A stretch of DNA of 31,579 nucleotides from Alphaproteobacteria bacterium (GTDB lineage: Bacteria; Pseudomonadota; Alphaproteobacteria; JALRGP01). The translations under genes were made by a program, and so were the position numbers. This document shows positions 4,087 to 25,779 of the stretch, one piece after another. A model generated the notes under the pieces. That model made no database searches and was not told the origin of the DNA. It saw nothing but the letters and a program-made list of their open reading frames with translations. The DNA is taken from assembly GCA_044355315.1 (NCBI GenBank), contig JBIKYJ010000001.1, positions 1-31,579 on the forward strand, read 5' to 3'. Each line of letters starts with the position of its first letter. Position 1 is the first letter of the stretch.

Positions 4087-4098
4087 AAGATATTCTTT

Positions 4099-5586: not shown

Positions 5587-5632
5587 ATGTGGATGTGTAT
5601 TTGAAATTTTAATTACGATAACAGGTTAAAAG

Positions 5633-5647
5633 TTAATAAATAATTAA
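5633..5647. promoter_or_regulatory. CtrA-type box upstream of phaC
   Basis: TTAA-taaataa-TTAA preceded by G, which gives the full TTAA-N7-TTAAC on the minus strand; 47 nt upstream of the phaC start. Confidence 0.5.
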
Positions 5648-5714
5648 AAAATAGAGTTATTGGGGTCAAATGCGCCATTGCAGCAAATACTAAGACATTT
5701 GATCATGGTAAATA

Positions 5715-5762
5715 TTTTTTTTAATAGAAATACCATAAAAATTAACTTTTTTTTAATAGAAA
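5715..5762 (+). repeat. 16-bp direct repeat x2
   Basis: TTTTTTTTAATAGAAA at 5715-5730 and 5747-5762 (32-bp period). Confidence 0.7.
5742..5756. promoter_or_regulatory. CtrA-type box upstream of rpoN
   Basis: TTAA-ctttttt-TTAA, upstream of TATAAT (5785-90) and the rpoN ATG (5804). Confidence 0.45.
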
Positions 5763-5803
5763 CATACAAATAATGCATAAAAAATATAATACATATCATC
5801 ACT

Positions 5804-7087
5804 ATGGTAATGAATTTAAATTTGAGCTTGTCTCAAAAGCTTGTTATGACCCAAAGTATGCAACAATCTATTGAAATTTTACAAATGTCTCATGATGAAT
5901 TGGTTGACTTCTTAAATGATTTTTCTAACAATCATCCTTTATTAGACATACAATTCTCAAGTCCTTACCAAGGAGGAAAAAATGCCTGTGGAACCGAAGA
6001 CGCACTATTAAATTATCCAGATCATCATTATTGTGGATTATCATCCTATTTAAAGGATCAATTGGTCTTTTTAAATTTACCCAAACATCTTCATGATACT
6101 GCTGTCAGTATTCTTTCCTATATTAATGATATTGGGTATATAGATTATTCTATGGAAGAATTAGCAAATTTGGTTAAAAAAAGCCCTCAAAAAGTTGAAA
6201 AAGCTTTGAAAGTTATTCAATGTTTTGACCCCACTGGTGTGGGAGCTCGAAACCTTCAAGAATGTGTTTTGATTCAATTAAAAAAACTTAACATGCTATC
6301 ACCACTTATGGAAACATTTGTAAAAAATTTGCATCATTTAGAAAATTATGATCTGCACTATGTATCAAAGCATATAGGGTTGAGTTATGAATTTTGTAAA
6401 AAAGCTTTGCATGATATCAGAATATATTGTTGTCCAAAACCCGGGTTAAGTTTTAGTGGATTTAACCCCTTATTATTTCAAATGCCAGACCTTATCATGC
6501 TCAAACAGGATAACATTTATACTGTCTCCCTTAATGCAGATGCGATTCCATCCATTGTTTTAAAATCAATTTCTCTAGAAGACCACTACGCCCAATCCTA
6601 TATGAAACAGCAAAACGCAGCAGGTCAATGGTTGATTCAATCGCTCAAACACCGTTACGAAAAAATATTAAAGGTTGGTAAAAAAATTATTGATATTCAA
6701 AAATCATTTTTTGATCATGGCCCACAAGCATTAAAACCTATGTCTATTAAAATATTAGCCCAAGATTTAGATATGCATCCCAGTACCATCAGTCGCATCA
6801 CGTCACAAAAATTTATTAAAACACCAAAAGGGACTTTTCCTTTAAAGTTTTTCTTTACCCATACCCTGAGTAATGATGATGATTTACATATTTCCAACAA
6901 AGGTATTATGGACATTATGAAAAAAATTATTGACGGTGAACCATCAGAGCGACCTTATTCTGATGAGCAAATTATGAGAATGTTAGAAAATAGAGGTATA
7001 AAAATTGCAAGACGAACTGTGACAAAATATAGAAAAAATTTAAATATTGATTCATCTCAGCAACGTAGGTTGGATGATTTAGCCTGA
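5804..7087 (+). CDS. rpoN: RNA polymerase sigma-54 factor
   Basis: Region I SQKLVMTQSMQQSIEILQM, DPTGVGARNLQECVLIQL, HTH DMHPSTISR and RpoN box ARRTVTKYR. Confidence 0.97.
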   Translation: MVMNLNLSLSQKLVMTQSMQQSIEILQMSHDELVDFLNDFSNNHPLLDIQFSSPYQGGKNACGTEDALLNYPDHHYCGLSSYLKDQLVFLNLPKHLHDTAVSILSYINDIGYIDYSMEELANLVKKSPQKVEKALKVIQCFDPTGVGARNLQECVLIQLKKLNMLSPLMETFVKNLHHLENYDLHYVSKHIGLSYEFCKKALHDIRIYCCPKPGLSFSGFNPLLFQMPDLIMLKQDNIYTVSLNADAIPSIVLKSISLEDHYAQSYMKQQNAAGQWLIQSLKHRYEKILKVGKKIIDIQKSFFDHGPQALKPMSIKILAQDLDMHPSTISRITSQKFIKTPKGTFPLKFFFTHTLSNDDDLHISNKGIMDIMKKIIDGEPSERPYSDEQIMRMLENRGIKIARRTVTKYRKNLNIDSSQQRRLDDLA

Positions 7088-7431
7088 CTTTTTCCCATAT
7101 TGCCAATTCTAAAATATCTGTTTTCAAACAAATTTAGAGAAATTTATGTCATAGTATTTCCATTGCCACGGGTGTGACAAGATAAGTAAAAAATAAAAAC
7201 TCGGTAATTTTAATGAAGTTGACCAAGGAATAAAAATATTGTATATTTTAATTCCTAACTTTTAATCGTACTCTAAATTTTAATAAAAAAATGTATTTTT
7301 TGTTAAAATAATGTAAAGTTAATTTAAAGTGAGAAACAATTTTTATCATGAGGGCTGATTAGTGATTTTAAGCTTATCGTATTTTTTGTATATCGCTTGC
7401 TTTTTAATAACCTTAAAGACAAAGGAGAATT

Positions 7432-9699
7432 ATGTCTATTTATCCTAAAAAATGATTTTTGATGCTGACTGCAGCACATATCACAGCATTTCATGGCTTT
7501 ACAATGGATCCTAATCCTAATGATAATAAAAGTAAATCATTAGGAAAACGTTTCCGCAATAATGACCAAGAAGAGAGTGAGGAGAGTAAGAAAGAACCCC
7601 CTTCAAAGAAAAGAAAGCGCTTCTCCATTACTGAAACATTAGTCAACTGTATCAAAAATAATAATAGTATTCCTAAAAAAATTGATGATACTAACAAAAA
7701 ACTAATTGATTGTAGTATTATTACGGATACATTGAATAAATACGATACAGGAAATAACGAATTTTTATTTAGACGAATGAATAGTGCTTTGACGATATCA
7801 TCTTTTTTTGAAGAAGATCGAAGTAATATTTTTTTAGAAAACATTAAAAAAGGAGTTTTTTGTGACAATAATGATGCTTGGAATATACATGAACAACAAC
7901 TAGATCTAACAGAAAACACAGAAAACATTTATATGGTGAGAGCTGAAGGTTACTATGGCTTGCTCAAAGATGTTTGTAAACATTTGGGAATCAATCAAAA
8001 TTCATATAATGTTGTTTCAGGTCATATTAAAAGATATGAACAAAATAACTATGATAATTTGACAAAAAAAATTAAACAAATACAGATGAAAGATCTGAAC
8101 ATCATTGTTTCCGTTATAGAGTACGACTTGTCTCAATCTGATATGAAACGTTTTGATGAGAAGACAATCGAAGAAAGATGGAACGCTTGGATTGAGTCAT
8201 TTAAAAGCGTCCTTGAGTCAAATCCAAACAATTCTGATAAAACCTCTTGTAATCCTGAGGCTTTTGCTGTTCATGCTTTGTCTGGGGACGACAAAGGCAA
8301 AAATCCTTTAAATGCTTTAGCAGTTATATATACCGATTTGGCAAAATTTTCCATCCTACTTAGTCATTGTTATCTGACATTTAAAAAATATAATGAAAAT
8401 TCAACTTTCAAAGAAATGGAGGATACATTAAGTTCGGAAGAGATTTACACAAAAGATCCTCATCTTCAAACCTCGTACAAAGAGTTGAAAAAATTCAATA
8501 GTGTATTAAAGATGACACAAAAGCTTATGACATTAACAGACAAAGATCGAAAAAAAATCGAAGTAGCTTGGGATAATGAATATAAAAAAAAATTTAATTC
8601 AACACCAACAGATGTTGAACAGATCCGACGTGAAGCTCTTGTTCAATATCTCTCGTTTAAGCGTCAAGATAATAGGAAAGATCTAATGCAGTCTGTTACT
8701 GAATTTGCAGAATCAATTCCATTAGATTCAGACTCTGAAAAAATTCATCAAAAATTTTTTCAAAAAATACACGATTTCATAAAAATAGATCCATCATGTA
8801 GATACTCTGATAGTCAAATTTTCAAATTATTCTTAAAAAGTTTAAAAGAGAAAAAAACCTCTTTGTCTTTTTCTGCAGAAGTGTCTGAGGCAGAATATGG
8901 GGAAGAAGAATATGGGGAAGAAGAATATGGGGAAGAAGAATATGGGGAGGAAGAATATGGGGAGGAAGAATATGGGAAGGAAGAATATTTAGAAAAAAAA
9001 ATAGATTTTTTAAAGACTTTTCCTTCACGTAAGCATTATGCTGATTTTTATACAAAAATTTCTCCTAATATCAATGCACAAAATATTGCATTCGAAATTA
9101 TTGAAAAAATGAGAAAACAATGGGGCTTTCCTTATAAAATATATAAAAATGGTTTAGAAACAAATGGTATAAAGTCAATTAAAAATGATTCATTCTATAA
9201 ACATTTCGATGCAATGTGGAACTCAGAGCTTGCTAAACACATAAGAATAGAGGGACATATTATGAAAGAAGATACGCTTTCTGAATGGATTACGGATCCC
9301 GAATGGCAGCCAGCAGCACAAGAATGTCTTGAGTATGTGAAAAACTATGTGAATATGAGAAATAAGAGTTCAAAAAATAAAAAAAGTCATCAGGTTTCAA
9401 ATGATCCCTATATTCAATTTATATACGATTCAATTAGAGATCACCCCCAAAATCATCCTACAGTTATAAGAGATATGGCTAAACATGAACAATGGGATGA
9501 GGCATGTCCAGGTAATAACTATATTGAAATCTCAGACAAGATGGGATCGTTTTTAGAGGAAGTTGACAAAATCGTCAACAATGGTGCAGATTTTAAAATC
9601 AAATTGCAACATCTTATAAACAACGACAAATTCTCAAATATCGATAAAGATCTTTTTGAAAAGATTGCAAATGATTACTACAAATTTAAAAAAAAATAA
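7432..9699 (+). CDS. Hypothetical protein, candidate secreted effector (in-frame TGA at codon 8; open from 7459/7462)
   Basis: AAGGAG RBS precedes ATG 7432, which is in frame with the 746-codon ORF but separated from it by TGA at 7453-55. Carries a PPSKKRKR motif and an EYGEE tandem repeat. No recognised family. Confidence 0.7.
8893..8988 (+). repeat. 15-bp coding tandem repeat, ~6.4 copies, (EYGEE)n
   Basis: GAATATGGGGAAGAA x3, GAATATGGGGAGGAA x2, GAATATGGGAAGGAA, then GAATAT. Confidence 0.97.
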
Positions 9700-9732
9700 A
9701 AACACTTTATCATAATTTTTGAATAAACTTTC

Positions 9733-9756
9733 ATGGCAGGAGCACTATCCTGCCAT
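9733..9756 (+). terminator. Hairpin after the hypothetical gene
   Basis: ATGGCAGGA-gcacta-TCCTGCCAT, 9-bp stem; no long U tract. Confidence 0.5.
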
Positions 9757-9819
9757 TCAGTATCGGCAAAATGATTACATTCGTTTAGAATAATTTTATA
9801 GAGATGCTCGGACATAGTC

Positions 9820-10812
9820 ATGAAATTTTTAGATCAGGTTAAAATTTTTTTAAAATCGGGGGACGGTGGTGCCGGATGCCTGAGTTTTCGTAGAGAAAAA
9901 TATATTGAATTTGGGGGGCCCAATGGTGGAAATGGTGGCAAAGGGGGCAATATTTACGTCCAAGGTGTCCACAATTTGAACACATTAATTGATTACCGTT
10001 ATCAACAACATTTCAAAGCTGAAAAGGGGCACCAAGGCAAAGGGCAAGAACGGACTGGCCGCCACGGTCATGATATTGTCTTAAAAGTTCCGGTAGGCAC
10101 CCAAATTTTTGATGAACACAAGGAAACCTTATTGTTAGACGTCACAACAGAAGAGGAAAAAGTTTTATTGTTAAAAGGTGGTGACGGAGGATTTGGTAAC
10201 AGCCATTACAAAAGCTCTACCCACCAAGCACCAAGGCGTGCAGATCCTGGTTGGCCTGGGCAAGAAATGTGGGTTTGGATGCAATTAAAGTTAATTGCTG
10301 ATGTGGGGTTGTTGGGATTACCTAATGCCGGAAAATCAACCTTTTTATCAGTTGTTTCTCGAGCAAAACCTAAAATTGCTGATTATCCATTTACAACATT
10401 GCATCCACAGTTGGGGGTCGTTTTTCACCATGACAAAGAGTTTGTTATATCGGATTTACCAGGTTTGATTAAAAATGCTCACCAAAGCGCCGGGCTTGGA
10501 CATCGCTTTTTAGGGCATGTAGAGCGCTGCAAAGTTTTATTGCACTTAATTGATGGGACTCAAGATGATGTCTGTCAGGCCTATCATACGATTCATCAAG
10601 AGCTTGTTTTATACGGAAGCGATTTAGACAATAAGCCAGAGCTTATTATTCTCAATAAAATTGATGCATTAACCGACGATATGATTGTACAAAAAAAACA
10701 AGAACTGGAAGCATGCACAGGTCAAACTGTTTATGCGTTGTCAAGTATATCAAAAAAAGGACTCACGGACATTTTAAATCAAACATTGACCATTCTTGAT
10801 GATATAATTTAA
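9820..10812 (+). CDS. obgE: GTPase Obg/CgtA
   Basis: MKFLDQVKI, Gly-rich Obg fold ([12 protein letters not shown]), [19 protein letters not shown] and NKID. Confidence 0.98.
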
Positions 10813-10820
10813 TTAGTGAA

Positions 10821-10845
10821 GGCTCTGAATCACTGATTCAGAGCC
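10821..10845. terminator. Perfect 25-bp palindrome between convergent genes
   Basis: GGCTCTGAATCA-c-TGATTCAGAGCC, located between the obgE stop and the stop of the 893-aa ORF. Confidence 0.5.
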
Positions 10846-10852
10846 CATATGA

Positions 10853-13534
10853 TTAATTTGAAATTTCTCCTTCTTCTTTTTCTGCAATTTTTTGTTTCTT
10901 ATATCCAATATCTTGACTTACATGTTGTCTATAGGCTAATTTTTTTTTATAAAAGTGATAGTCAACCTCACCAAGATTAGCTATTAAACCCTTTTTTTCA
11001 TTAGCTTTTTCTTTTCTTTTTTTGACAAATTCTGATCGATAATTTTTAAGAAAATTATCGTAAAATTCTTTAATTTTTTCATCCTCTTGACATTGTGGGT
11101 GCTTTTTTAACAAATCTAGTTTTTCCTTAATATTTGTTTGGAATTCTTTCATAGACATGAATTTTTCACCAATCAATAATCCGTTTGTATAAACGTAGTA
11201 ATTCTTATAAATAGTTATTAATAAATTTGCTTGTACTAAAGGATCTTTACAATCTAATGCATAAGCGGACACAATATCTTTTTTCCTCTTTAAAACATCT
11301 TCAGAATCATTTTGACCTTGTATATTCCGTTCTAACGGCACATTTAAAATACTTGTCCATGCCTGGATACGTTTTTTGATATCTGTTTTTGTATCTTGTC
11401 CATAAGAATGCAAAATTTTAAATAGATATTCCATGAATTGTTTTTTTTCTGCTTTAAAATCTTTTCCGTAAGACTTAATAATCGTTATTAATGCCGTCAT
11501 ACGTTTTTCTCTATCGTTTAGGTTTTTTTCTGTATATGAAGCTACGAATGGGATGAGATGCTGCGTAATGGCTCTTCTTACTAGAGAAGGATTGTTTTGA
11601 GAAAAATTAATAATTGTCGTCCAACCTTGAATATATTTATCTATATAAGAACGATCACGAATAGTACGATATTTGGAAAGTAAATCAACTAGTTTATTTA
11701 GATACATTGATTGTTCATTGGTGTTTCTAAAAGCATTGATCACGGCTATTAATCCCGCAATAACTATATCCGCCCTAACATCTTTACTAGTACGCAATAG
11801 ATCAAATAATTTTTTTGCATTTTCTAGCTGAAATTCGGAGTTTAAATTTTGATTTTTAGAATCAATAATAGTATTTACAACTGCTGAGCGTCCCTGAATC
11901 AACACAGATCGTTTAACGTCAAGATCAAGTGGATTATTCAAAATTTTTAATAAAGATTCAACGTCTTTTAGATCACCCTCTTCATGTAGTAAAGCAACGT
12001 ATCCCAAAATAGCATTGTTGGATGCTATTGATTTACATGATAAAGATTTTCTAAGTTTTTCTGTATATGGTTTACCGTAATTAACAAGAATACGTAAGGC
12101 TCTTGCAGATTGTTCTGGAGATAATTGTTTAGAACTTATCAACGTCTCGAGTTTTTTAATATCCTTTTTATTATCGTCCGTAGGCTTCTTTAATTTCTGA
12201 ATAATTTCGTTAAAATCTTTATCTAAACTATCTTTTGATAAAACATTTTGTGCATCATGTTGACGTTGGTTCTGCTCTTTATGCGGGCCGTGTATTGTTT
12301 TGTAAGAAAAATGTTTTTCAGAAATTTTATTGATTGTATTGATCATTTTATTACAGATTCCTTCAGCTGGACCATCGTGGTATTGAGGGTGAATAAACAA
12401 TCGATTACTCATATGAATATGAAATTGTTGTCTTTTGTTATTACTAACTATACATCTAGCTTCAACTTGGTCTTGATTACTATTTTTGCGTCTTTTACCT
12501 TTGTTAATACAGATAGTTGAGCAGAGTGGATTAAAATGAACACACAATTTTCCATGTTGGTTCTGGTCCTCTAGCATCACAAAATCATTAAACCCCCATT
12601 TGCCTATATCTTGGGGCATGGTTATGGAAGTATCCTCCGCCCTTTTAAATAACTCAATATTACTATGGTATTTTTTTTTAAGTATATCTATATGATGCTT
12701 TATTTTATCATGCTTCTTTTGGTTATTTTTAGGATCATGATCTAAGGTAACATCTGAACGACTAGAAAAATGACCATCATTATTTTTTTTATAAAAAAGA
12801 TCGTTCAAAACCAAGTGAGGTTTTCCTTCTCTCCAATAAAATGCAGACAATGGTTGTAGCGTAAATCTTTGAACAGTATTCCATTTTTTGAGAAAATTAT
12901 TAAAACATTTGAAGTTATTGAAACGAAATTTACATCCCTCTTCAAATGTAATATCAATATCAATATCAAAATTATAGAAAGAAGTTTTTTTTAATGCATC
13001 AATATCATGTGTATTAAAGTGAACATAATGAATGGGTTCTCCTTGATTTAAAAAAAATCGTGCACTTCTAATTTTTCGAATAATTTCTTTGTTTATGGGA
13101 ACAGAATATTCATATAAACCAAAATCATTTTTTTTTGATTGCGAAAATTGCATTTTTTCCCATGGTTCTTCTCTCTTATGTTTCTCTTGAATAAATGTGA
13201 TTTGATCTATCTTCATGGTGCTCTGAATAATACTGTTTCTAGGATCATTTGGATCTTCTTTTATATTGATACCTGCCCCATGTGCCGGTGACCAAGCTAA
13301 ACATGCAACGACACTGTAAGATATCCACAGATGATTAAAATTCTGTTTTTTATACAATATAGTTAACGAGAAATAAATCTTTATTTTTGACATCAATCTT
13401 AGAATGCTATGGGTGAGTAGTGATCTCAATTGGCTGATTAATAATAAAAGGATCATGATATACTTCATAAGTGTATGATCGGAATTTACAATTTCTATCT
13501 CCATTATTGTGGCAGAAAAATGGTTTAGATTCAT
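10853..13534 (-). CDS. Large hypothetical protein with C-terminal helical repeats, candidate secreted effector
   Basis: 893-codon ORF with a hydrophobic N-terminal segment ending ...ACLAWSPAHG-A and degenerate ~44-aa repeats in the C-terminal half. Start codon uncertain. Confidence 0.75.
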   Translation of the reverse strand: MNLNHFSATIMEIEIVNSDHTLMKYIMILLLLISQLRSLLTHSILRLMSKIKIYFSLTILYKKQNFNHLWISYSVVACLAWSPAHGAGINIKEDPNDPRNSIIQSTMKIDQITFIQEKHKREEPWEKMQFSQSKKNDFGLYEYSVPINKEIIRKIRSARFFLNQGEPIHYVHFNTHDIDALKKTSFYNFDIDIDITFEEGCKFRFNNFKCFNNFLKKWNTVQRFTLQPLSAFYWREGKPHLVLNDLFYKKNNDGHFSSRSDVTLDHDPKNNQKKHDKIKHHIDILKKKYHSNIELFKRAEDTSITMPQDIGKWGFNDFVMLEDQNQHGKLCVHFNPLCSTICINKGKRRKNSNQDQVEARCIVSNNKRQQFHIHMSNRLFIHPQYHDGPAEGICNKMINTINKISEKHFSYKTIHGPHKEQNQRQHDAQNVLSKDSLDKDFNEIIQKLKKPTDDNKKDIKKLETLISSKQLSPEQSARALRILVNYGKPYTEKLRKSLSCKSIASNNAILGYVALLHEEGDLKDVESLLKILNNPLDLDVKRSVLIQGRSAVVNTIIDSKNQNLNSEFQLENAKKLFDLLRTSKDVRADIVIAGLIAVINAFRNTNEQSMYLNKLVDLLSKYRTIRDRSYIDKYIQGWTTIINFSQNNPSLVRRAITQHLIPFVASYTEKNLNDREKRMTALITIIKSYGKDFKAEKKQFMEYLFKILHSYGQDTKTDIKKRIQAWTSILNVPLERNIQGQNDSEDVLKRKKDIVSAYALDCKDPLVQANLLITIYKNYYVYTNGLLIGEKFMSMKEFQTNIKEKLDLLKKHPQCQEDEKIKEFYDNFLKNYRSEFVKKRKEKANEKKGLIANLGEVDYHFYKKKLAYRQHVSQDIGYKKQKIAEKEEGEISN

Positions 13535-13581
13535 AATTAATATAAAAAATGTACCAATAGAATTAATATAAAAAATAAAAG

Positions 13582-13596
13582 TTAATAAATTATTAA
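13582..13596. promoter_or_regulatory. CtrA-type box upstream of the 893-aa ORF
   Basis: G-TTAA-taaatta-TTAA; the 24-bp context differs from the phaC box context at one position. Confidence 0.5.
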
Positions 13597-13630
13597 AAAA
13601 ACTTCATATATGAAGTTGGCTTGAGAACTT

Positions 13631-14620
13631 TTAAAAAACGAGAGTTGGTAAGGTCTTTCTTTTAAAAATGATCAAAAAAATGATTATACACATTACAGTA
13701 TAGCTCAGATAAAATGCTTGATAGTGGGTTAGTGTAAAAAAAGCCCCCTGCAAGATAATAATGCTTAAGAAGTAAGATATTTTAAAACACGAATGGCTTT
13801 GAAGGGGCCGAAGTAAGAAAGAACAACCAAGCAAGCCAGTTAATAAACAACACAGACTCATGATGATACGTTGGTGCCCTTCACTTTGGTAAGTTATATC
13901 TTTTGATTTTAAGAGTTGTTTTAAAGATATTTCGCAAGGACGTTTGATTTTTTTTTCAATCAAAGACACGTATGAAGTAAGATCAAAATGAAATGACTCA
14001 AACGATAATACATGGCGTTGAACGTCTTGATATTGACCTTTAAACAAATGAATCAGAATGCGTTTATCTTTGATATCAATAAATCCCTCTTCTGCTGTGA
14101 TGCATGATGAATTTGGATCTTGGATAAAAATTCCAATTAATTTTTGGTCTTTCGTGACATCTTTTACGTAAATTATGGTTGAATTTAAAAAATGAAATTC
14201 ACCTTTTTTAATTAATAATTTTGAAAAGTTTTCTTTAAGTTGATGCTCCTTATCCTTGAATTTTTGATACCCCCATGGAACAGCATACATATTGCAAAAA
14301 AAAGAGAATCCTGTTGTGATAATTCCCAATATATACATGGGTTTTTTTAAAATTTTTAATGAAAAAAAATGATGATGACCAAATTTTTGATAACTCATAA
14401 TCATGCCTAAACACATACAAGATGGCAGCATATATACAATTAAATCCGGAATAATAAATGCAGAAAAACCCAAATATTCCCATAGTGATATATGATAATT
14501 GATAATAATATCTAATAATCTTAACGATTGAAACAGCCAAATGAGTCCAACAAATATTAATAAAAAAGATAACGTATTTTGAATACTGTGGCGCAGTAAA
14601 TAACGATGAACAAGTAACAC
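13631..14620 (-). CDS. lptF: LptF/LptG-family LPS export permease
   Basis: HRYLLR start, IWLFQSLRLLDIIIN, IIPDLIVYMLP, periplasmic beta-jellyroll (KGEFHF, IYVKD, ITAEEG) and EGHQRI before the final TMs. lptF versus lptG is not certain. Confidence 0.8.
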   Translation of the reverse strand: MLLVHRYLLRHSIQNTLSFLLIFVGLIWLFQSLRLLDIIINYHISLWEYLGFSAFIIPDLIVYMLPSCMCLGMIMSYQKFGHHHFFSLKILKKPMYILGIITTGFSFFCNMYAVPWGYQKFKDKEHQLKENFSKLLIKKGEFHFLNSTIIYVKDVTKDQKLIGIFIQDPNSSCITAEEGFIDIKDKRILIHLFKGQYQDVQRHVLSFESFHFDLTSYVSLIEKKIKRPCEISLKQLLKSKDITYQSEGHQRIIMSLCCLLTGLLGCSFLLRPLQSHSCFKISYFLSIIILQGAFFTLTHYQAFYLSYTVMCIIIFLIIFKRKTLPTLVF

Positions 14621-14622
14621 GC

Positions 14623-15801: not shown

Positions 15802-15818
15802 TTAATACATCTCGTCTT

Positions 15819-15836
15819 TGATAAAATATTTTATCA
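15819..15836. promoter_or_regulatory. Perfect 18-bp palindrome upstream of murG
   Basis: TGATAAAATATTTTATCA is its own reverse complement; it lies 17 nt upstream of the murG ATG and downstream of tRNA-Ser. Confidence 0.4.
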
Positions 15837-15866
15837 TTTTTTAAAAACCTAAGGACGCGACCTAAT

Positions 15867-15957
<91 letters not shown>

Positions 15958-15987
15958 ATAATTCAGATTAGCATTGTTACGTATTTT

Positions 15988-16002
15988 TTAAAAAAATGTT
16001 AA
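15988..16002. promoter_or_regulatory. CtrA-type box upstream of tRNA-Ser/murG/lptF
   Basis: TTAA-aaaaatg-TTAA, 31 nt upstream of the tRNA 5' end. Confidence 0.4.
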
Positions 16003-16036
16003 TGTAAGTTTGTGTTGTTCTACCAAAAACTTATTA

Positions 16037-16846: not shown

Positions 16847-19538
16847 AAGGGCACAAGGAATTACGTGTTTTTGGGGGAGTGATAATCTCTTCGATTGGTG
16901 TCTGATCCTCTTTTTCGGGAATTAAATCTTTGAAATTTTTGGATGACCTGAGATCATCCGATAACATTTTTAAAAAATTTGGATCTTTCATCAATTTATC
17001 CATATCTAAGTTTTTTAAAAAATCAAGTTGTTGAGATTCATCGTCCTCCTCCTCATCATCATCCGATGAAATATGTTGTCCTTCATAATGGCAAAATGCC
17101 GATGCAAAATCAGTTTTCACCTGTTCCATCATCGATTGAAATAAATGGAATGCCTCTTTTTTATATTCATTCAGAGGGTTTCCTTGAGCATAAGACCGTA
17201 AATTAATCCCTTGTCTTAGGTGATCAAGGGTAAGTAAATGATTTTTCCAAGAGTGATCTAAAACACGCAGCAACATATTTTTTTCAGAAGTGATACTGTC
17301 AAAAGTTTTTGACACATTTTCCACAAAGTTATCCACAAGCTTTTTTGTTTCTAAACGTAGCAAAACCGGTGTCAAATGGGGCTGTGATTTCCAGTCATCC
17401 ACCGGAAAGTCCAGCGAAAACAGGCGTTTCCCATCTTGGTAAATTTGATCAAAGTCCCATTCGCCCTCGCTAGCCTTAGCATTTTCAAACTTATCCACAA
17501 ATTGATCCACAACATCGTTGAATAACTCTTGGCGAAGATCACTTAAGTTTGTTGAATCCATGATCTCCAAGCGTTGATTATAAACCACTTTACGTTGATC
17601 GTTCATTACATCATCAAAACGCAATAAATTTTTACGAATATCAAAGTTATGGGCCTCGATGCGTTGTTGGGCTTTTTCAATGGAGCGGTTTAACCATTTA
17701 TGGGCCAAGACTTCGTCTTCTTTTGTACCAAAGCGACGTAGCATCGTATCCATACGTTGTGTAGCGCCAAATACACGAATAAGCTCGTCCTGAATGGAAA
17801 TGAAAAATTGAGAAGCTCCTGGGTCTCCTTGGCGTCCTGCTCGTCCGCGCAATTGGTTGTCGACGCGTCTGCTTTCATGCCTCTCTGTTCCAATAATAAA
17901 TAACCCCCCCGCAGCTTTGACTTTTTCTTTATTGTCAAAAATATCATCTTTTACTCGTTGGGTGATACGCTCAATCTCATTCGGGTCATCAATACCTTCT
18001 AATTCTTTTTCAAGACGCATATCTAAATTTCCGCCCAATTGAATGTCTGTTCCGCGTCCTGCCATGTTGGTGGCAACAGTAACGGCACCAAAGCGACCTG
18101 CTTCTGCAATAATATAAGCTTCCTTTTCATGGTGGCGGGCATTCAAGACCTGATGAGGAATCTGTTCTTTGTTTAACAAATTTGAAATGAGCTCAGACTT
18201 TTCAATGCTGGTGGTTCCAACCAAAACCGGTTGCCCACGTTCACGGCATTCCTTAATTAAAGCAACCACAGCAGTATATTTTCCTTGGGTAGTTAAATAG
18301 ATATGATCATCTAAATCACGACGTTGAACAGGAACGTTGGGGGGGATTTCTATAACGCGCAGTTTGTAAATCTCCTCAAATTCTGCTTCTTCTGTCATAG
18401 CCGTTCCAGCCATTCCGGATAATTTGGGGTATTGTCTAAAGAAGTTTTGATAGGTGATGGAAGCAAGGGTTTGATTTTCCGTTTGTATATGAACTTTTTC
18501 TTTGGCTTCCAAAGCTTGATGAAGGCCATCAGAATAACGGCGCCCTTCCATCATACGACCCGTAAATTCATCGATGATAATGACTTGTTGATCTTTGACA
18601 ATATAATCCACATCACGACTAAACAATTTGTGCGCTTTAAGGGCAGCATGGACGTGATGGACGAGTGCAATATTATTGACATCATAAAGGGACCCGCCTT
18701 TTAATAAATCATGCTCTCTTAAAAGACTTTCCATTTTTTCAATGCCTGCTTCGGATAAGATGACTGTGTGCTGTTTTTCATCCTTTTCATAATCACTCTC
18801 AATCAAATGAGGAATTAAAACATTAATCGCTTTATACAACTCCGACGAATCTTCAGCAGGACCAGAAATAATTAAAGGAGTACGGGCTTCGTCAATGAGA
18901 ATACTATCCACCTCATCTACAATCGCAAAATTAAAAGGACGCATGACCATGTCTTCTTTTTTGAATTTCATATTGTCTTTTAAATAATCAAAGCCAAATT
19001 CAGAGTTTGTGCCATAGGTTACATCACATCCATAAGCTTCGCGCCTTTGGTAATCACTGAGGCCATGATAAATGCACCCAACGCTGAGTCCTAAAAAATT
19101 ATAGAGTTTTCCCATCGTTTTTGCGTCACGTTTTACCAAATAATCATTGACTGTGACGATATGGACACCTTTTCCGGTTAAAGTATTTAAATACACCGGT
19201 AGTGTTGCCATTAATGTTTTTCCTTCCCCAGTTTTCATTTCGGCAATCATTCCTTCGTGCAAAGTCATGCCGCCAATTAACTGAACATCATAGGGACGCA
19301 TACCTAAAACGCGCCATGCGGCTTCGCGTACGGTTGCAAAAGCTTCTGGCAATAGTTCAGATAAATGGACACCACTTTCAACTTTTTCTTTTAAAAATGC
19401 CGTTTTTCCTTGCAATTCTTCATCCGTTAATGCTTTAAATGACTCTTGATATTGATTGATTTTCTTGACAGATGCATTAAATGTTTTTAAAGCCCGGTCA
19501 TTGGCACTGCCTAAAAATAATCTTAATATTTTTTTCAT
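16794..19538 (-). CDS. secA: Preprotein translocase ATPase SecA
   Basis: MKTGEGKT, VDEVDSILIDEARTPLIISG, TNMAGRGTDI, GRAGRQGDPG and C-terminal SEC-C CPCGSRKRYKNCHG. Confidence 0.99.
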   Translation of the reverse strand: MKKILRLFLGSANDRALKTFNASVKKINQYQESFKALTDEELQGKTAFLKEKVESGVHLSELLPEAFATVREAAWRVLGMRPYDVQLIGGMTLHEGMIAEMKTGEGKTLMATLPVYLNTLTGKGVHIVTVNDYLVKRDAKTMGKLYNFLGLSVGCIYHGLSDYQRREAYGCDVTYGTNSEFGFDYLKDNMKFKKEDMVMRPFNFAIVDEVDSILIDEARTPLIISGPAEDSSELYKAINVLIPHLIESDYEKDEKQHTVILSEAGIEKMESLLREHDLLKGGSLYDVNNIALVHHVHAALKAHKLFSRDVDYIVKDQQVIIIDEFTGRMMEGRRYSDGLHQALEAKEKVHIQTENQTLASITYQNFFRQYPKLSGMAGTAMTEEAEFEEIYKLRVIEIPPNVPVQRRDLDDHIYLTTQGKYTAVVALIKECRERGQPVLVGTTSIEKSELISNLLNKEQIPHQVLNARHHEKEAYIIAEAGRFGAVTVATNMAGRGTDIQLGGNLDMRLEKELEGIDDPNEIERITQRVKDDIFDNKEKVKAAGGLFIIGTERHESRRVDNQLRGRAGRQGDPGASQFFISIQDELIRVFGATQRMDTMLRRFGTKEDEVLAHKWLNRSIEKAQQRIEAHNFDIRKNLLRFDDVMNDQRKVVYNQRLEIMDSTNLSDLRQELFNDVVDQFVDKFENAKASEGEWDFDQIYQDGKRLFSLDFPVDDWKSQPHLTPVLLRLETKKLVDNFVENVSKTFDSITSEKNMLLRVLDHSWKNHLLTLDHLRQGINLRSYAQGNPLNEYKKEAFHLFQSMMEQVKTDFASAFCHYEGQHISSDDDEEEDDESQQLDFLKNLDMDKLMKDPNFLKMLSDDLRSSKNFKDLIPEKEDQTPIEEIITPPKTRNSLCPCGSRKRYKNCHGQVDTI

Positions 19539-19651
19539 ACTCGTTGATTAGGTGACATAAACCCCTTATATTAAATCATACATGAATTTAGGAATTATGC
19601 AGAATATTCTTAATATAGGAGGACATAAAAACTGGGAAATATTGCAATGCT

Positions 19652-21415
19652 TTATCCTCCTCCTGCTTCAAAGCGTACAAAGTTTTGATAAAAATCCGAG
19701 GATGTCATCAGCTCACCATGGGTGCCAATCGTTTCGATTTTTCCTTTAGACATCACAATGATTTTATCCGCGGATAAAATGGTTTGAAGACGGTGTGCAA
19801 TAATTAAGGTTGTTCCGTCATAAAAATTATTTTTAAAAATATCTTGACCAGAACTGTCCAAAAAATTGGTTGGCTCATCCAATAATAATATTTTTGATGG
19901 TCGAAGCAAGGCTCGGGCCAAAGAGAGTCGTTGTTTTTGTCCTCCTGACAAAGAGAATCCCTTTGATCCTAATGGTGTAAAAATACCCTTGGGAAGAGTC
20001 TGAATCACCCGGTCAAGTCCTGTTTTTTCCACGATTTCATCAACATGATGCTTTAAGACATTGGGGCACCCGTATAATAAATTATCCAAAAATGTTCCAC
20101 AAAAAATTGCTGGTTCCTGTTGGGCATATGAAATGTGTTGTCTGATATCAAACGGGTGAATATGATCACTGTCAATTCCTTCAATATAAATATGACCGCT
20201 GGCGGGGGTATAAAATTTTAATAATAATGAGAAGATTGTGGATTTTCCAGCACCATTAGGCCCCACAATCGCCACGACTTCTTTCGGGTGAGCTGAAAAA
20301 CTAATGTGGTCTAATACTTTTTTAAGAGGTTGAGTGGGGTAAGAAAAACTAACGTTATGAAACGCGAGAATACCCTTTGGATTTTTAATTGGTTTATAGG
20401 ATATCAACGAAGTCTGTGGAATTTTTTTAATAATGTCAAGGATTCGTAATGATGCACCGCAAGCCTTGTGAAAATCCCCCGCAATATTGCCAAAAGATGC
20501 AATGCTGCCGCAAAATGCAGCAAAAAAAACTAAAAAAGATGTGAGATTTTCAACAGAAATACGCTCATGTGCTAACTCATATTTTCCAAAAAATAATAAA
20601 ATGATCGCCCCCAAAAATGCACAAAAAAACATCCACGTTGATAGCCATGCTCTAGCATGGGCGGTCTTCATGGCTGCAGCATGGCAGGTCATACCCAATT
20701 CATGGCTGCGTACATCCTCAATAGGCTCACGGGTAAATGTTTGAACGGTTTTGATATTAGATAAATTATCTTCAATGTAATGGTGATAATCACCAATAAT
20801 CTCTTGGGCTTGGTATGAGTAGCAGCGCACTTTTTTTCCATATAAAAATAATGGATATAAAATAATGGGTAAAAAAATGATACTATATCCGCTCATGAAC
20901 ATGGAGCTGGTCAACATCATATAAAGCGATCCAAAAAAAATAAGAGTATTACGCATAAAAATAGATAAGCCTGAACATAATGTTCCTTGAATTAAAAATA
21001 AATCTAAATTAAGTGCAGACAAAATATGACCAATTTTTATGTTTTCAAAAAAAGATAAAGGAGCACGTATTAATTTTTGATATAAATCAACACGGATATC
21101 ATTTGTGATTTTTTCTCCTAGCCATAAAACATGATAAATTCTTGAATAAGTTGTAAATCCTAATAAAAATAATCCCATACCTAAAAATGTAACTATTGGG
21201 ATAATGGGAATATCTGACGATAATAAAAAATGAGAAATGCCTTTTTTAACCCCTTGGCTAAGAACAATAAAGGCAATGGTTGCAATAAACAAGGTTACTA
21301 ATGTTAAAAAAAGACGTTTTTTGTAAAATTTTGCATAAACCCAAAATAATTGAATAAAAGCGGACATGTCATCATATGTTGCTAAGATTAACACATTGTA
21401 TCTCGTTAGAGACAT
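19652..21415 (-). CDS. MsbA-like ABC exporter (fused TMD-NBD)
   Basis: N-terminal TM domain, Walker A GPNGAGKST, signature LSGGQKQR, Walker B LLLDEPT and H-loop IIAHRL. Confidence 0.92.
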   Translation of the reverse strand: MSLTRYNVLILATYDDMSAFIQLFWVYAKFYKKRLFLTLVTLFIATIAFIVLSQGVKKGISHFLLSSDIPIIPIVTFLGMGLFLLGFTTYSRIYHVLWLGEKITNDIRVDLYQKLIRAPLSFFENIKIGHILSALNLDLFLIQGTLCSGLSIFMRNTLIFFGSLYMMLTSSMFMSGYSIIFLPIILYPLFLYGKKVRCYSYQAQEIIGDYHHYIEDNLSNIKTVQTFTREPIEDVRSHELGMTCHAAAMKTAHARAWLSTWMFFCAFLGAIILLFFGKYELAHERISVENLTSFLVFFAAFCGSIASFGNIAGDFHKACGASLRILDIIKKIPQTSLISYKPIKNPKGILAFHNVSFSYPTQPLKKVLDHISFSAHPKEVVAIVGPNGAGKSTIFSLLLKFYTPASGHIYIEGIDSDHIHPFDIRQHISYAQQEPAIFCGTFLDNLLYGCPNVLKHHVDEIVEKTGLDRVIQTLPKGIFTPLGSKGFSLSGGQKQRLSLARALLRPSKILLLDEPTNFLDSSGQDIFKNNFYDGTTLIIAHRLQTILSADKIIVMSKGKIETIGTHGELMTSSDFYQNFVRFEAGGG

Positions 21416-21624
21416 AGGCTACAAACCATAGAGAACGCATCTTAGTAAATTTTATGTCATGAAATCCTGAGTTAAATTGGTGGCAATAAACTTCAAGAAT
21501 TCTTTACCATTTTAAAAAAAATGATAGGACTGATTGTGTTTTTGATAATTTAATAAACTTAATTTTGTAAACAATATCTTTTTTTTGCTACAATTTTGTT
21601 ATTGGTCGGTAATATGTCTTCATT

Positions 21625-23064
21625 TTGTTACGTTTTTTTTTATCTTTCACCTTAGGTTTTTCTTTTTTTAGTTACAGTTTGCCTAAAGTTTCAAAAAGCC
21701 AATCTTGTCGAGATTTAAAAACAGCGTTAGAGGCCGCCTATAAAAACAACGGTACCATCTTAGAAGCTCGTCAAAACGTTTTATCTAATCACGACAAAAT
21801 CACACAATATTTAGCAGGATTCAAACCAACCGTCACATTTAATGCTGGTCTTCAAAAAAGTTATAATTCTATTTCTAATAATCAAGCTGGAAATGTCCTT
21901 GATCCGACCACTCAATCAACCGGTGGTGAACAAACACAGAGAACCTATGGTGTCCGAGGCGAATACAACATTTTTGAAGGGGGGCGTACGATCCATGGAT
22001 TCAAAGCACAAGATACTCAAATCAGAGCCCTTTGGGCAGATTTACAAAGCAAAGAACAAAATGTACTGCTTGAGGTTGTTAAATCTTATTTAGATATTTT
22101 GTATTACCAAGGGGTATGTAAATCTTACAGGGCTGCATTAGATCAGTACAAGCGCGCCTATGACAGTGCCTTTGAAAAAAATAAAGTTGGAGATGAGGCT
22201 TTAACACAGGTTAAAAATGCCGAAGCAGAATATAATAATGCTTTGTCTATTCTTCAGCAAAACGAACAACAACTCATTCAATCTCAAAATAATTTTCATC
22301 AATTAACGGGTGTGGAGGCCCAAGATCTGCGTTCAGTGGATTTTCCAGATGTCAAAAATATGCAAAATATTGAACGTCTTTTTGATAAGGCTAAGGATAA
22401 AAATCCAAATATTTTAACTATAATTCTTCAACACAAAAGTGCACAATACGAAAAGAGAACAGCAGAAGGATCTATGTTGCCACGTGCAGATTTATTTGTT
22501 CAGGTCAATCGATCGGAATCACCATCACGTCAAGATGGAAATCCACTCGTAAATGGAGGGTTATCTTTTCCTGGAGGTCAGTTATTTACTAATCAGTTCC
22601 AAACGCAAACACAATTTGGTATTAATGTGAGATGGACATTGTACGACGGTGGTGTTGCCAGGTCTCAAAGACGTTTAGCTCATGAAAAATCCATGTTGTC
22701 TCGTGTTACTTTAAACAAAATTTTTCAACAACTTCGTCAAAGTATTCGTGATGGCGTCAGTGCAATTAAGATTTTTAAAGATAATATTGATATTCAAAAA
22801 GCACAAATCAATGCACGCAAAATTGCTTTAGAAGCTACTATCCAAGAGCAAAACGCAGGAACGAAGGTTGTTTTAGACGTTTTGTTTGCTCAAAAATTTT
22901 TATTGGACGCTGAGCGAGGACACCAAGAGGCTCTGCGCTCCTATTTCGTGGCTTATTATACGTTGTTGTCAATTGTAGGAGATCTCAACCCCAGCTATTT
23001 AAAATTAAAAATTGATGAGTTCAATCCAATTGCACACTACGATCAAGCAAAAAAACGTATGTAA
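21625..23064 (+). CDS. tolC: TolC-family outer membrane channel
   Basis: Signal peptide, duplicated OEP pattern (ALEAAYKNN...FKPTV; YNIFEGG; MLPRADL; WTLYDGG) and AGTKVVLDVLFAQ. TTG start. Confidence 0.88.
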   Translation: MLRFFLSFTLGFSFFSYSLPKVSKSQSCRDLKTALEAAYKNNGTILEARQNVLSNHDKITQYLAGFKPTVTFNAGLQKSYNSISNNQAGNVLDPTTQSTGGEQTQRTYGVRGEYNIFEGGRTIHGFKAQDTQIRALWADLQSKEQNVLLEVVKSYLDILYYQGVCKSYRAALDQYKRAYDSAFEKNKVGDEALTQVKNAEAEYNNALSILQQNEQQLIQSQNNFHQLTGVEAQDLRSVDFPDVKNMQNIERLFDKAKDKNPNILTIILQHKSAQYEKRTAEGSMLPRADLFVQVNRSESPSRQDGNPLVNGGLSFPGGQLFTNQFQTQTQFGINVRWTLYDGGVARSQRRLAHEKSMLSRVTLNKIFQQLRQSIRDGVSAIKIFKDNIDIQKAQINARKIALEATIQEQNAGTKVVLDVLFAQKFLLDAERGHQEALRSYFVAYYTLLSIVGDLNPSYLKLKIDEFNPIAHYDQAKKRM

Positions 23065-23076
23065 CACAGGCTATAT

Positions 23077-23103
23077 CCCCCCTAATGTGTATTTATAGGG
23101 GGG
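23077..23103 (+). terminator. GC hairpin after tolC
   Basis: CCCCCCTA-N11-TAGGGGGG; no U tract. Confidence 0.35.
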
Positions 23104-23293
23104 GTACGCACATGTTAGTAATCAGAATGTTTGTATTTAAATGAATGATTCTGCTCAAATCATTACCAAATTTTCAAAAACCATATTTTTTTCAAATTTA
23201 CCCCCATCTTTTTATCCCACCTCATGAGTTTATGAGTTGAGCTCGTACAAAATTTGTAATTTATAAGAAGAATAAGTATAATAAAAGTATGGA

Positions 23294-23369
23294 TGGGGCA
23301 TAGCCAAGTTGGTAAGGCAACGGTTTTTGGTACCGTCATCCCTAGGTTCGAGTCCTAGTGCCCCAGCCA
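23294..23369 (+). tRNA. tRNA-Gln(UUG)
   Basis: TGGGGCA/TGCCCCA acceptor stem, anticodon arm ACGGT-TTTTGGT-ACCGT, GGTTCGAGTCC T-loop and encoded CCA. Confidence 0.97.
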
Positions 23370-23399
23370 GTTGTATATATACTTAATATAAAAGTTATC

Positions 23400-24434
23400 A
23401 TGACAGACTGCGTTCTTCTTCCTGTCGCTGGCGTTGAAATTTATACTTATTTTGTTTTTATCATTGGTGTTGCTGGTGGTTTTATATCATCGGTGTTTGG
23501 TGTTGGTAGTGGTTTAATCATTACTCCTTGTTTAATGATGATGGGAATCCCCCCGTTAGTCAGTGTATCCTCTCAATTAAATAATGCTGCAAGCACAGGC
23601 TTTGTATCATTTTTGGCTTATTTTAAAAAGCGTGACGTTGATATTGCTTTAGGCATGTATTTATTTTTTGGAGGATTATGTGGCGCCATCTTAGAATTTT
23701 TCTTTTTAGATCATTTTAGGGGACGCATTAAAATATTTGCTGTCATATTTTTAAGTTTTTTAGCAATAATTATGTTCCTTCAAAACGTTGTTTTTAAAAA
23801 TTCTCATCAATCCAGACCTTCAGGAGTCAGCATGCGACATTGGATGATTTACATTCCATTTCACCGCATATTTATTCGATCACGGGTAGAAATGAGTATT
23901 TTGGTTCCTTTCTTTATTGGTATTATAACTGGTTTATTAACATCGTCGTTGGGAGGTGCCACAAGCATTTTAACTATCCCCATGTTAACCTATATTATTG
24001 GTCGTGTCAGTGCCGCGGTAACAGGAACATCATTTTTAGCTGGTTTTGGTATTAATACAGTCATTATCATTTTACATTCTTTAAATGGGGCTCCCTGTGA
24101 TTTTGTTTTAGTTTTTTTACTCATATCGGGGGGAATTCTTGGTGTTATGTTAGGTATTTTTTTTCTTAATTATCTGCCTAAAGATTGCGTAGGGATTTTG
24201 GGATCACTTATTATTATTGGAGTGTGCATCAAATTTTGGATTGATGTACTTTTGTCAAAAGAACATAGTATTGATGATTCCTCTACTTTGCTTATTGCTG
24301 ATTGGCTGAAACCTTTTATGGACCATTATGCCTTTGAATATTCAATGACTTGTTTATTTGCTTTTATTTTGTTTGCGTGGGTTTTACAAAGTACCTTATT
24401 AAAAATCACTGATCTTATACGTAAAAATTCGTAA
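23400..24434 (+). CDS. TauE/SafE (TSUP) family membrane protein
   Basis: GFISSVFGVGSGLIITPCLMMMGIPP and a second repeat GGATSILTIPMLTYIIG; multi-TM. Start moved to ATG 23400 because the track start (23358) lies inside the tRNA. Confidence 0.85.
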   Translation: MTDCVLLPVAGVEIYTYFVFIIGVAGGFISSVFGVGSGLIITPCLMMMGIPPLVSVSSQLNNAASTGFVSFLAYFKKRDVDIALGMYLFFGGLCGAILEFFFLDHFRGRIKIFAVIFLSFLAIIMFLQNVVFKNSHQSRPSGVSMRHWMIYIPFHRIFIRSRVEMSILVPFFIGIITGLLTSSLGGATSILTIPMLTYIIGRVSAAVTGTSFLAGFGINTVIIILHSLNGAPCDFVLVFLLISGGILGVMLGIFFLNYLPKDCVGILGSLIIIGVCIKFWIDVLLSKEHSIDDSSTLLIADWLKPFMDHYAFEYSMTCLFAFILFAWVLQSTLLKITDLIRKNS

Positions 24435-24530
24435 CGTCTTTTTATTTAATCCTTTAAAATTGAGAGAATCTTAAAGCGGTTACATATTATGCCTTTGTCT
24501 TTATTCATTCATAAATTTTAAAATGTTTTA

Positions 24531-24557
24531 AAAAGGCAGAAATATCTTCTGCCTTTT
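24531..24557. terminator. Bidirectional intrinsic terminator
   Basis: AAAAGGCAGAA-atatc-TTCTGCCTTTT between convergent genes. Confidence 0.8.
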
Positions 24558-24585
24558 GTTAAAAATTATCACCCCTAGTTATTAC

Positions 24586-25638
24586 CTAAAGACTCTCAAT
24601 TTCATCCATGATAGAAACCATTTCTCTAGATAAATTTTGCATCTCTTCTTGAGCTTTTGCGTAGTTTTCAAGAGCATCTTTTAAAAAATTTCTAGCCCCT
24701 GGAATCTGCTCATTTGCACCCTTCTTAAGTTCTGGAGTTCCATGCGTGTTGATGACAGATAAAAGTTTATCTAGGTACTCTTGAGAGAATTCTTTGCCTG
24801 ACACAGTATTTTTAATTTCCTTATTTAAATGACCCATACCATCAATATCTTCAGATAATACTGAAATAATCATTTGTGCAGTGTCAAGATTATTATTTCC
24901 AGCAGTAATCTTTTTTTCAGAGTCACTCAATTGCTGTTTACATGTTTCAAATTTTTTATTTAGATCTTGAATTTGTTTTTTTTTCTTATCGTCTTGTTTG
25001 AATTCTTCTAACATTTTTTTTAAAAAATCATTTACTTTATTTAAAAAAACTGGATCTTTTAAGTCATTCAAATCTTTTTGAATACTGATTTTGACTGTGT
25101 TCGCATCTAATGATGGCTGCTGATCTGCTCTAGATGATACAGAGATTTGTTCTTGTGGACCAAAAGATTGATGAGAAGATAGTCTTCTTAATTCAGACTT
25201 TTCAGATATTTTTTTAAAACATTCTGGAATTTCTAATTTTTCCACTTTTACATTTGATCTCTCAACAGTTTTTTTCTGAAGAGGGGCCCATTCTTTAATT
25301 CTACCTACAGGAGCCGCAGATGGCTTGTAATTTGATATATATTGATGTATAGCTGCAATTTCAGTGAAAGATGGTTTGGGTTCTACTTGTCCATATAGTT
25401 GCTTGTTTTTTTCAACAAAACTCAATTCATCTTTACTTAATTTTTCAAAAATTTTTCCCAAAAATTCTTTTGAACTATCAATATTTTTAAATTCGGCTGC
25501 TTTTTTAAAAATATTTTTTACATTTTCTTGCGACATGTTCGTTCTAAACTTATTAATCAAATGTTGTTCTTCATTTGATTCCATTGAATGAATTGCTGCC
25601 GTGCTGACCAACAATCCAATTAGTATTTTTCTATACAT
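24586..25638 (-). CDS. Hypothetical secreted coiled-coil protein
   Basis: GGAG RBS 6 nt before ATG 25638; signal-peptide-like MYRKILIGLLVSTAAIHS; K/E/Q-rich heptad-like C-terminal half. Confidence 0.75.
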   Translation of the reverse strand: MYRKILIGLLVSTAAIHSMESNEEQHLINKFRTNMSQENVKNIFKKAAEFKNIDSSKEFLGKIFEKLSKDELSFVEKNKQLYGQVEPKPSFTEIAAIHQYISNYKPSAAPVGRIKEWAPLQKKTVERSNVKVEKLEIPECFKKISEKSELRRLSSHQSFGPQEQISVSSRADQQPSLDANTVKISIQKDLNDLKDPVFLNKVNDFLKKMLEEFKQDDKKKKQIQDLNKKFETCKQQLSDSEKKITAGNNNLDTAQMIISVLSEDIDGMGHLNKEIKNTVSGKEFSQEYLDKLLSVINTHGTPELKKGANEQIPGARNFLKDALENYAKAQEEMQNLSREMVSIMDEIESL

Positions 25639-25764
25639 AGTTAACTCCATTAGTATTTGATTATTTTCCAAAGACTCCATTGTCTGTGAAAGGGATGATT
25701 AAGGCTTATATCCAAAATATATATAAATCTATCTCATCCTATTTAATAAAATCATATATAAATA

Positions 25765-25779
25765 TTAATAAATGGTTAA
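25765..25779. promoter_or_regulatory. CtrA-type box upstream of the coiled-coil gene
   Basis: TTAA-taaatgg-TTAA; the minus strand reads TTAACCATTTATTAA and contains the TTAACCAT half-site. Confidence 0.5.

Follow-up and report, generated by a model that had tools for sequence, protein, structure and literature searches.

Which regulator reads the TTAA-N7-TTAA sites that lie between the genes of a 31,579-nucleotide (nt) contig from an uncultured, reduced and probably intracellular alphaproteobacterium (contig JBIKYJ010000001.1, positions 1 to 31,579, of assembly GCA_044355315.1; this whole stretch is called the window)? TTAA-N7-TTAA(C) is one consensus form of the response regulator CtrA, the 8-mer TTAACCAT being another (PMC9791040). 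An initial annotation of the window, which gave the former consensus correctly, had marked five exact sites in intergenic DNA, at 5633 (phaC), 5742 (rpoN), 13582 (an open reading frame (ORF) of 893 amino acids (aa)), 15988 (tRNA-Ser-murG-lptF) and 25765 (a coiled-coil gene). It had proposed a cascade from CtrA to sigma-54 that switches on polyhydroxybutyrate (PHB) storage, wall synthesis and secreted effectors for a transmissive form, and had named enrichment over a Markov background, the presence of ctrA, cckA and chpT, and conservation in orthologous promoters as ways of checking it. All five sites were found at these positions, between ORFs or RNA genes. Judged by their frequency, placement and conservation, such sites are probably, and with good confidence, operator boxes of CtrA that make up a genome-wide promoter class. 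The sites in the window are as follows.

5632..5647, minus strand: CtrA-type box, TTAATTATTTATTAAC on the gene strand, 46 nt upstream of the TTG start of phaC; in the positional peak (44-51 nt, see below)
5742..5756, plus strand: CtrA-type box TTAACTTTTTTTTAA, 47 nt upstream of the rpoN start codon; inside the positional peak
13581..13596, minus strand: CtrA-type box, TTAATAATTTATTAAC on the gene strand, 47 nt upstream of the 893-aa orphan ORF; in the positional peak
15988..16002, minus strand: TTAA-N7-TTAA match, TTAACATTTTTTTAA on the gene strand, 30 nt upstream of the 5′ end of tRNA-Ser(CGA)
25765..25779, minus strand: CtrA-type box, TTAACCATTTATTAA on the gene strand, including TTAACCAT, 84 nt upstream of a 364-aa ORF

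Frequency, position and conservation of the box

The window is contig C85 of the study genome (G000), a 904-kb assembly of 105 contigs with 35% G+C and 89% completeness. Gene calling by a simple longest-ORF rule yielded 830 genes with approximate starts (88% of the DNA coding, 107 kb intergenic). In the intergenic DNA of this genome, TTAA-N7-TTAA occurs 78 times, and every other spacer from N0 to N20 gives 22-50 occurrences. From Markov models (orders 1, 3 and 5) fitted to the intergenic DNA, 27-31 are expected (z = 8-9), so that the enrichment over background which the initial annotation had named as a check is present. In coding DNA no N7 peak was observed, only codon-phase periodicity. Within the window, the whole stretch holds eight exact matches against 4.4 expected, a weak excess that 7 of 100 shuffles reach, and its intergenic part (3,381 bases) holds five against 0.97 expected (Poisson P = 0.003). 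The remaining three matches (9839, 29227 and 29937) fall in or at coding DNA; with chance-like spacers and flanks and scores outside the core of -12 to -16, they look like chance. Control boxes inside coding DNA have a median score of -11 and a 90th percentile of -2.0.

The distance to the start codon was then considered. In 33 cases the box ends 44-51 nt ahead of a start codon, a position at which N6 and N8 spacers give no sites. Exact cores in this peak number 35 against 2-6 expected, one-mismatch cores 27 against 19-35 expected; since the exact cores are in excess and the one-mismatch cores are not, the class is discrete. A position weight matrix trained on the exact sites adds few sites, and because this gain is small and one-mismatch cores are unenriched, the regulon was not enlarged with degenerate sites. 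Boxes at 80-84 nt upstream were tried as a subclass, which was dropped as the cluster was heterogeneous. When 37 sites were aligned in gene orientation, the consensus was aaaaaTTAA[C/T][T/A]ATTT[A/T]TTAA[T/C]aaTT, with information content down to background outside -5 to +22. The class is estimated at about 35-45 promoters genome-wide. The exact cores in the peak correspond to about 8% of the 464 genes that have 70 nt or more of free DNA upstream, and the box is therefore not the general promoter.

Downstream of the box, TANNNT hexamers are most frequent 10-11 nt after TTAAC, where 18 of 54 promoters have one. This layout would place the box over the -35 region. CtrA sites lie near -35 at CtrA-activated promoters (PMC6180460), and PMC11264516 likewise describes CtrA-activated promoters whose box covers -35. 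Both TTAA half-sites, one helical turn apart, would be occupied by a phosphorylated CtrA dimer; the box, overlapping -35, would help to bring RNA polymerase to a weak -10 that follows after about 10-11 nt. The implied leader is roughly 22-26 nt, and the fixed distance of about 47 nt between box and start codon would follow from it. We infer CtrA binding, the transcription start and, by analogy with Caulobacter and Ehrlichia, activation rather than repression. Only 10 of the 54 box promoters of G000 and its relative G001 have a Shine-Dalgarno-like tetramer no more than 20 nt from the start codon.

G001 is the sole close relative, a metagenome-assembled genome of the same genus ('Alphaproteobacteria bacterium MDM.26') with an RpoN 77% identical, and the comparison covers 677 kb of it (68% of its assembly). 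Here also N7 boxes are in excess in intergenic DNA (62 vs 11-32 for other spacers), and the positional peak replicates. Orthologues were defined by reciprocal best matches and taken as full-length when the start offset was within 30 nt. The box is kept at the same place in 13 of 16 full-length orthologous targets, as compared with 6 of 450 non-target genes; adding six fragment-only matches gives 13 of 22. The orthologous-promoter conservation looked for by the initial annotation is thus observed. When the sites are picked in G000 alone, the eight core positions are 92% identical to G001, as against 83% for the spacer and 65% for the flanking bases; a second conserved patch lies at +25 to +29.

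CtrA, a CckA-like kinase and the sigma-54 branch

G000 encodes two OmpR-family regulators, on contigs C39 and C53. The C39 protein scores 328 bits to the CtrA equivalog NF045991 and 171 to the next family; its 328 bits fall below the curated cut-off of 350 bits of this model, which was trained on Rhodobacterales. Compared over its full length with thousands of proteins named CtrA, it shows 60-64% identity, and D51, K101, the recognition helix KIIDVFICKLRKK and the wing are invariant. The C53 regulator is PhoB/OmpR-like. A 753-aa hybrid kinase on C95 has its best matches to two CckA equivalogs (523 and 463 bits; cut-offs 1000 bits). Of the three genes named by the initial annotation, ctrA and a CckA-like kinase gene are thus present; chpT is taken up below.

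The ctrA promoter itself carries the box. In G000 TTAATATTTATTTAA lies 48 nt before the ATG, in G001 an identical box lies 46 nt before the start, and in 9 of 19 class-level relatives an exact box is found within 300 nt upstream of ctrA, in some cases in GC-rich DNA. From this arrangement ctrA is predicted to be autoregulated through its own box.

Flagellar genes are present in G000, as is an FlbD-like activator (C89:681-1985, 599 bits; cut-off 750 bits). Strong TGGCAC-N5-TTGCA promoters were found 30-40 nt upstream of two flgF/G genes, flgE, flgD, flgI, an SLT transglycosylase gene and a flagellin-like gene. Their positions are given below.

C8:3761, sigma-54 promoter
C78:6415, sigma-54 promoter
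C73:3857, sigma-54 promoter
C57:17578, sigma-54 promoter
C54:8051, sigma-54 promoter
C100:8274, sigma-54 promoter
C2:19779, sigma-54 promoter

Two further candidates precede genes without a Pfam match. The sigma-54 promoter scan gave none before phaC, murG, tssB or the orphan ORFs, and these genes, murG excepted, carry CtrA boxes themselves. The genes served correspond to the class III/IV tier of Caulobacter (PMC6180460), and the output of the cascade would be the flagellum. The step from CtrA to sigma-54 is credible, since the rpoN box is conserved and correctly placed. The cascade of the initial annotation is thereby retained as far as rpoN, and its extension to PHB, wall and effector genes through sigma-54 is not. 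In the mechanism proposed here, CtrA would act through rpoN and the FlbD-like activator to switch on, indirectly, the genes for flagellar rod, hook, ring and filament, and the storage and effector-like genes would be its direct targets.

An exact TTAA-N7-TTAA also occurs at C100:8259-8273, directly before the start of the flagellin-like gene and downstream of its sigma-54 promoter; it could be a chance match or a repressing CtrA site.

The sites of the window and the regulon

The genes next to the five sites are the following.

4099..5586, minus strand: phaC (PHB synthase), with Pfam PhaC_N and an alpha/beta hydrolase fold
5804..7087, plus strand: rpoN (sigma-54), with Pfam Sigma54_AID, Sigma54_CBD and Sigma54_DBD
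10853..13534, minus strand: 893-aa orphan ORF, no Pfam match, low-confidence TPR/HEAT-like structural neighbours only
15867..15957, minus strand: tRNA-Ser(CGA), followed on the same strand by murG (14623-15801) and lptF/G (13631-14620)
24586..25680, minus strand: 364-aa ORF, no Pfam match and no family assigned

The rpoN box is very likely real, more so than the other four. G001 has the same box sequence 45 nt before the aligned rpoN start, with a conserved -10-like stretch after it; the box of the window scores low outside the core (-1.6). RpoN belongs with FlbD to the CtrA-dependent class II genes of Caulobacter (PMC6180460), as the initial annotation had stated for rpoN.

The sites before phaC and the 893-aa ORF resemble each other closely. 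The 24-nt stretches around 5633 and 13582 are identical at 23 of 24 positions, and both read TTAA-N7-TTAAC, the full CtrA consensus, on the gene strand. The spacer start TAAAT on the plus strand is common to 5633, 13582 and 25765, all three of which face minus-strand genes. These resemblances had been pointed out in the initial annotation, whose distances of 47 and 48 nt correspond to boxes ending 46 and 47 nt before the starts; its choice of phaC and the 893-aa ORF as CtrA targets also stands, both being credible direct targets with boxes in the peak. The 893-aa box (non-core score 6.4) is very probably real, and the phaC box, with typical spacer and flanks and a score of 8.0, the class median, is probably real too, with only slightly less assurance. 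The 893-aa ORF has a 401-aa paralogue at C98:5209-6411 with a near-identical promoter. In G001 (C97) the gene is left only as fragments broken by stop codons, with no intact orthologue, and the gene family therefore turns over quickly. The 893-aa product is possibly an alpha-helical repeat protein, going by its low-confidence structural neighbours.

The box of the 364-aa ORF lies outside the 44-51 nt peak yet has the top non-core score of the five (13.8), and it is likely to be real. The G001 orthologue starts 63 nt from a contig edge. The 8-mer TTAACCAT contained in the window's box occurs at 56 places in G000, 10 of them intergenic.

The site at 15988 is ambiguous, and we consider it somewhat doubtful that it is a real box. 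Its non-core score is -2.6, with chance-like spacer and flanks; the 30-nt distance to the tRNA would suit a promoter. Among tRNA genes as a group there is no excess, a box lying within 120 nt in 2 of 36 against about 1 by chance. The tRNA-Ser(CGA) gene was not found in the G001 assembly, where murG has no upstream tRNA. The envelope link drawn by the initial annotation through this site is weak, as the box precedes tRNA-Ser and looks like chance outside its core. As a separate observation, residues about 160-215 of murG match at least six unrelated places in G001, and the G001 murG is without that segment and aligns as two pieces (residues 2-167 and 224-392). This fits an in-frame mobile palindromic element.

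Across the genome, the targets in the positional peak include those in the lines that follow.

ctrA, rpoN and phaC
tssB-tssC, the sheath operon of a type VI secretion system (T6SS), with the box conserved in G001
a patatin phospholipase
LRR, Big-domain, papain-like and transglutaminase-like proteins
a 1155-aa glycogen-synthase-like protein and a LicD/cytidylyltransferase
MIP, ion-transport and MscS channels
a MarR-type regulator, KdsA, FolB and DprA
about 19 ORFs without a Pfam match, several of them of 600-1050 aa

A single box at C82:3877-3891 lies between the FolB-like gene (48 nt) and a divergent 128-aa ORF (46 nt), and G001 keeps the divergent arrangement at its L123 locus (49 and 46 nt). 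At C62:2025, C87:9015 and C94:2532, members of a paralogous orphan family have near-identical promoters and 5′ regions, with a box each. Two of these copies are at contig ends and may therefore be a repeated gene that breaks the assembly.

Alternative readings and related systems

Several results weigh against control by CtrA as proposed here. The -10 element is weak. A search for ChpT (PF10090) in the 89%-complete G000 found none; Brilli et al. reported that reduced Rickettsiales keep CckA and CtrA and that ChpT escapes best-hit searches (PMC2877005). No box was seen within 160 nt upstream of flbD, which seemingly lies inside an operon, or within 160 nt upstream of flhA. The phaC site of G001, also 46 nt from the start, has the upstream half-site TTCA, a mismatch in the core; a second exact box lies 20 nt further upstream, and phaC control in that species may be weaker or shifted. 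Start codons come from the simple longest-ORF caller, and conservation was followed in one close relative over 68% of its assembly, relatives not being independent samples. Metatranscriptome contigs from three lake-water RNA runs gave, against window positions 4000-23999, short low-depth fragments with no usable 5′ ends, in which DNA carry-over is possible.

The initial annotation had cautioned that AT-rich DNA produces some such hits by chance, and the caution is right in part: about 31 of the 78 intergenic boxes are expected, the excess over the whole window is weak, the tRNA-Ser and rpoN boxes score low outside the core, and tRNA genes show no excess. For the class as a whole chance is refuted by the N7-specific enrichment (z about 8), the sharp positional peak, the replication in G001 and the conservation of the box at orthologous promoters. 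That all five sites of the window are chance matches is very unlikely indeed, given the fivefold count over the 0.97 expected in its intergenic DNA. Spread of a duplicated promoter cassette or small mobile element by recombination would also multiply a motif, and a few promoters are near-identical over at least 60 nt, namely those of paralogues (C62, C87 and C94; the 893-aa ORF and its C98 relative). Most targets are however unrelated genes, information content is at background outside -5 to +22 across the 37 sites, and conservation between the species is concentrated on the core, which makes this explanation extremely improbable.

The box might instead be read by another factor, such as the C53 OmpR-family regulator, a MarR-type protein or an unusual sigma factor. 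CtrA binding to the box is a prediction, a sigma-like promoter element would also go with the rigid geometry and the strictly exact cores, and the MarR-type gene is itself a box target. We regard such a reader as unlikely, because the motif is the CtrA consensus in both its TTAAC and TTAACCAT forms, the CtrA recognition helix is invariant, the box stands before ctrA in G000, in G001 and in 9 of 19 class-level relatives, and the C53 regulator is of PhoB/OmpR type. It is very unlikely that CtrA controls PHB, cell-wall and effector genes mainly by way of sigma-54. The conserved rpoN box and the presence of at least one true sigma-54 activator would agree with such a route, but all strong sigma-54 promoters with an assigned function precede flagellar genes or the SLT transglycosylase gene; none was found before phaC, murG, tssB or the orphan ORFs, which, apart from murG, have boxes of their own.

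In Caulobacter flbD and flhA are class II genes; here both are boxless, and ChpT was not found. Caulobacter crescentus and G000 share the TTAA-N7-TTAA(C) motif and sigma-54/FlbD-type promoters before rod, hook, P-ring and flagellin genes. The placement of the box near -35, the autoregulation of ctrA and a place of rpoN downstream of CtrA, all as in Caulobacter, are predicted for G000 (PMC6180460, PMC9791040, PMC11264516). Unlike in Caulobacter, the boxes of G000 hardly vary at their eight core bases and keep a rigid spacing of 44-51 nt from the start codon, and the targets are mostly T6SS, storage, phospholipase and orphan genes and not cell-cycle or class II flagellar genes. In the fla2 system of Rhodobacter sphaeroides, divergent promoters are activated from a single CtrA site (PMC6180460). 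The box at C82:3877, conserved in G001, likewise serves two divergent genes by its position, whereas these are FolB-like and orphan genes, not flagellar ones, and their activation is predicted.

Ehrlichia chaffeensis, likewise a reduced alphaproteobacterium, has retained CckA and CtrA, and its CtrA boxes stand before genes of stress and host interaction (PMC9791040, PMC4251998); ChpT is hard to find in such genomes (PMC2877005). The Ehrlichia sites, in contrast, vary in their distance, which is often larger, as at gst (-181 to -166). Ehrlichia is not known to have rpoN, flagella or a T6SS. As to the organism studied here, its named SecA best matches are to Paracaedibacteraceae, Ca. Finniella, Ca. 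Odyssella and other Holosporales (56-58% identity), and the Holosporales-like placement is a lead, not a phylogeny. Lake-water metagenomes contain its DNA.

By analogy with Caulobacter and Ehrlichia, the CtrA box may, tentatively, mark one dispersal or infective-stage programme, comprising the T6SS sheath, the flagellar tier through rpoN, PHB and glycogen, the patatin phospholipase and about 20 large orphan proteins; we rate this as possible but somewhat short of probable. The system is a new example of a well-known control circuit and leaves the knowledge of how CtrA works unchanged. Its regulon is statistically solid, recurs in a second species and belongs to an uncultured, reduced alphaproteobacterium that has no genetics. 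Half of the targets are unannotated, and co-regulation with tssBC, the patatin phospholipase and rpoN would give them a testable context of host interaction or dispersal. If the programme is real, an exact box 44-51 nt from a start codon would be a predictor, from sequence only, of effector genes in uncultured protist symbionts. The ancestral circuit from CtrA through sigma-54 and FlbD to the flagellum would appear to survive genome reduction, with the direct targets of CtrA rewired.

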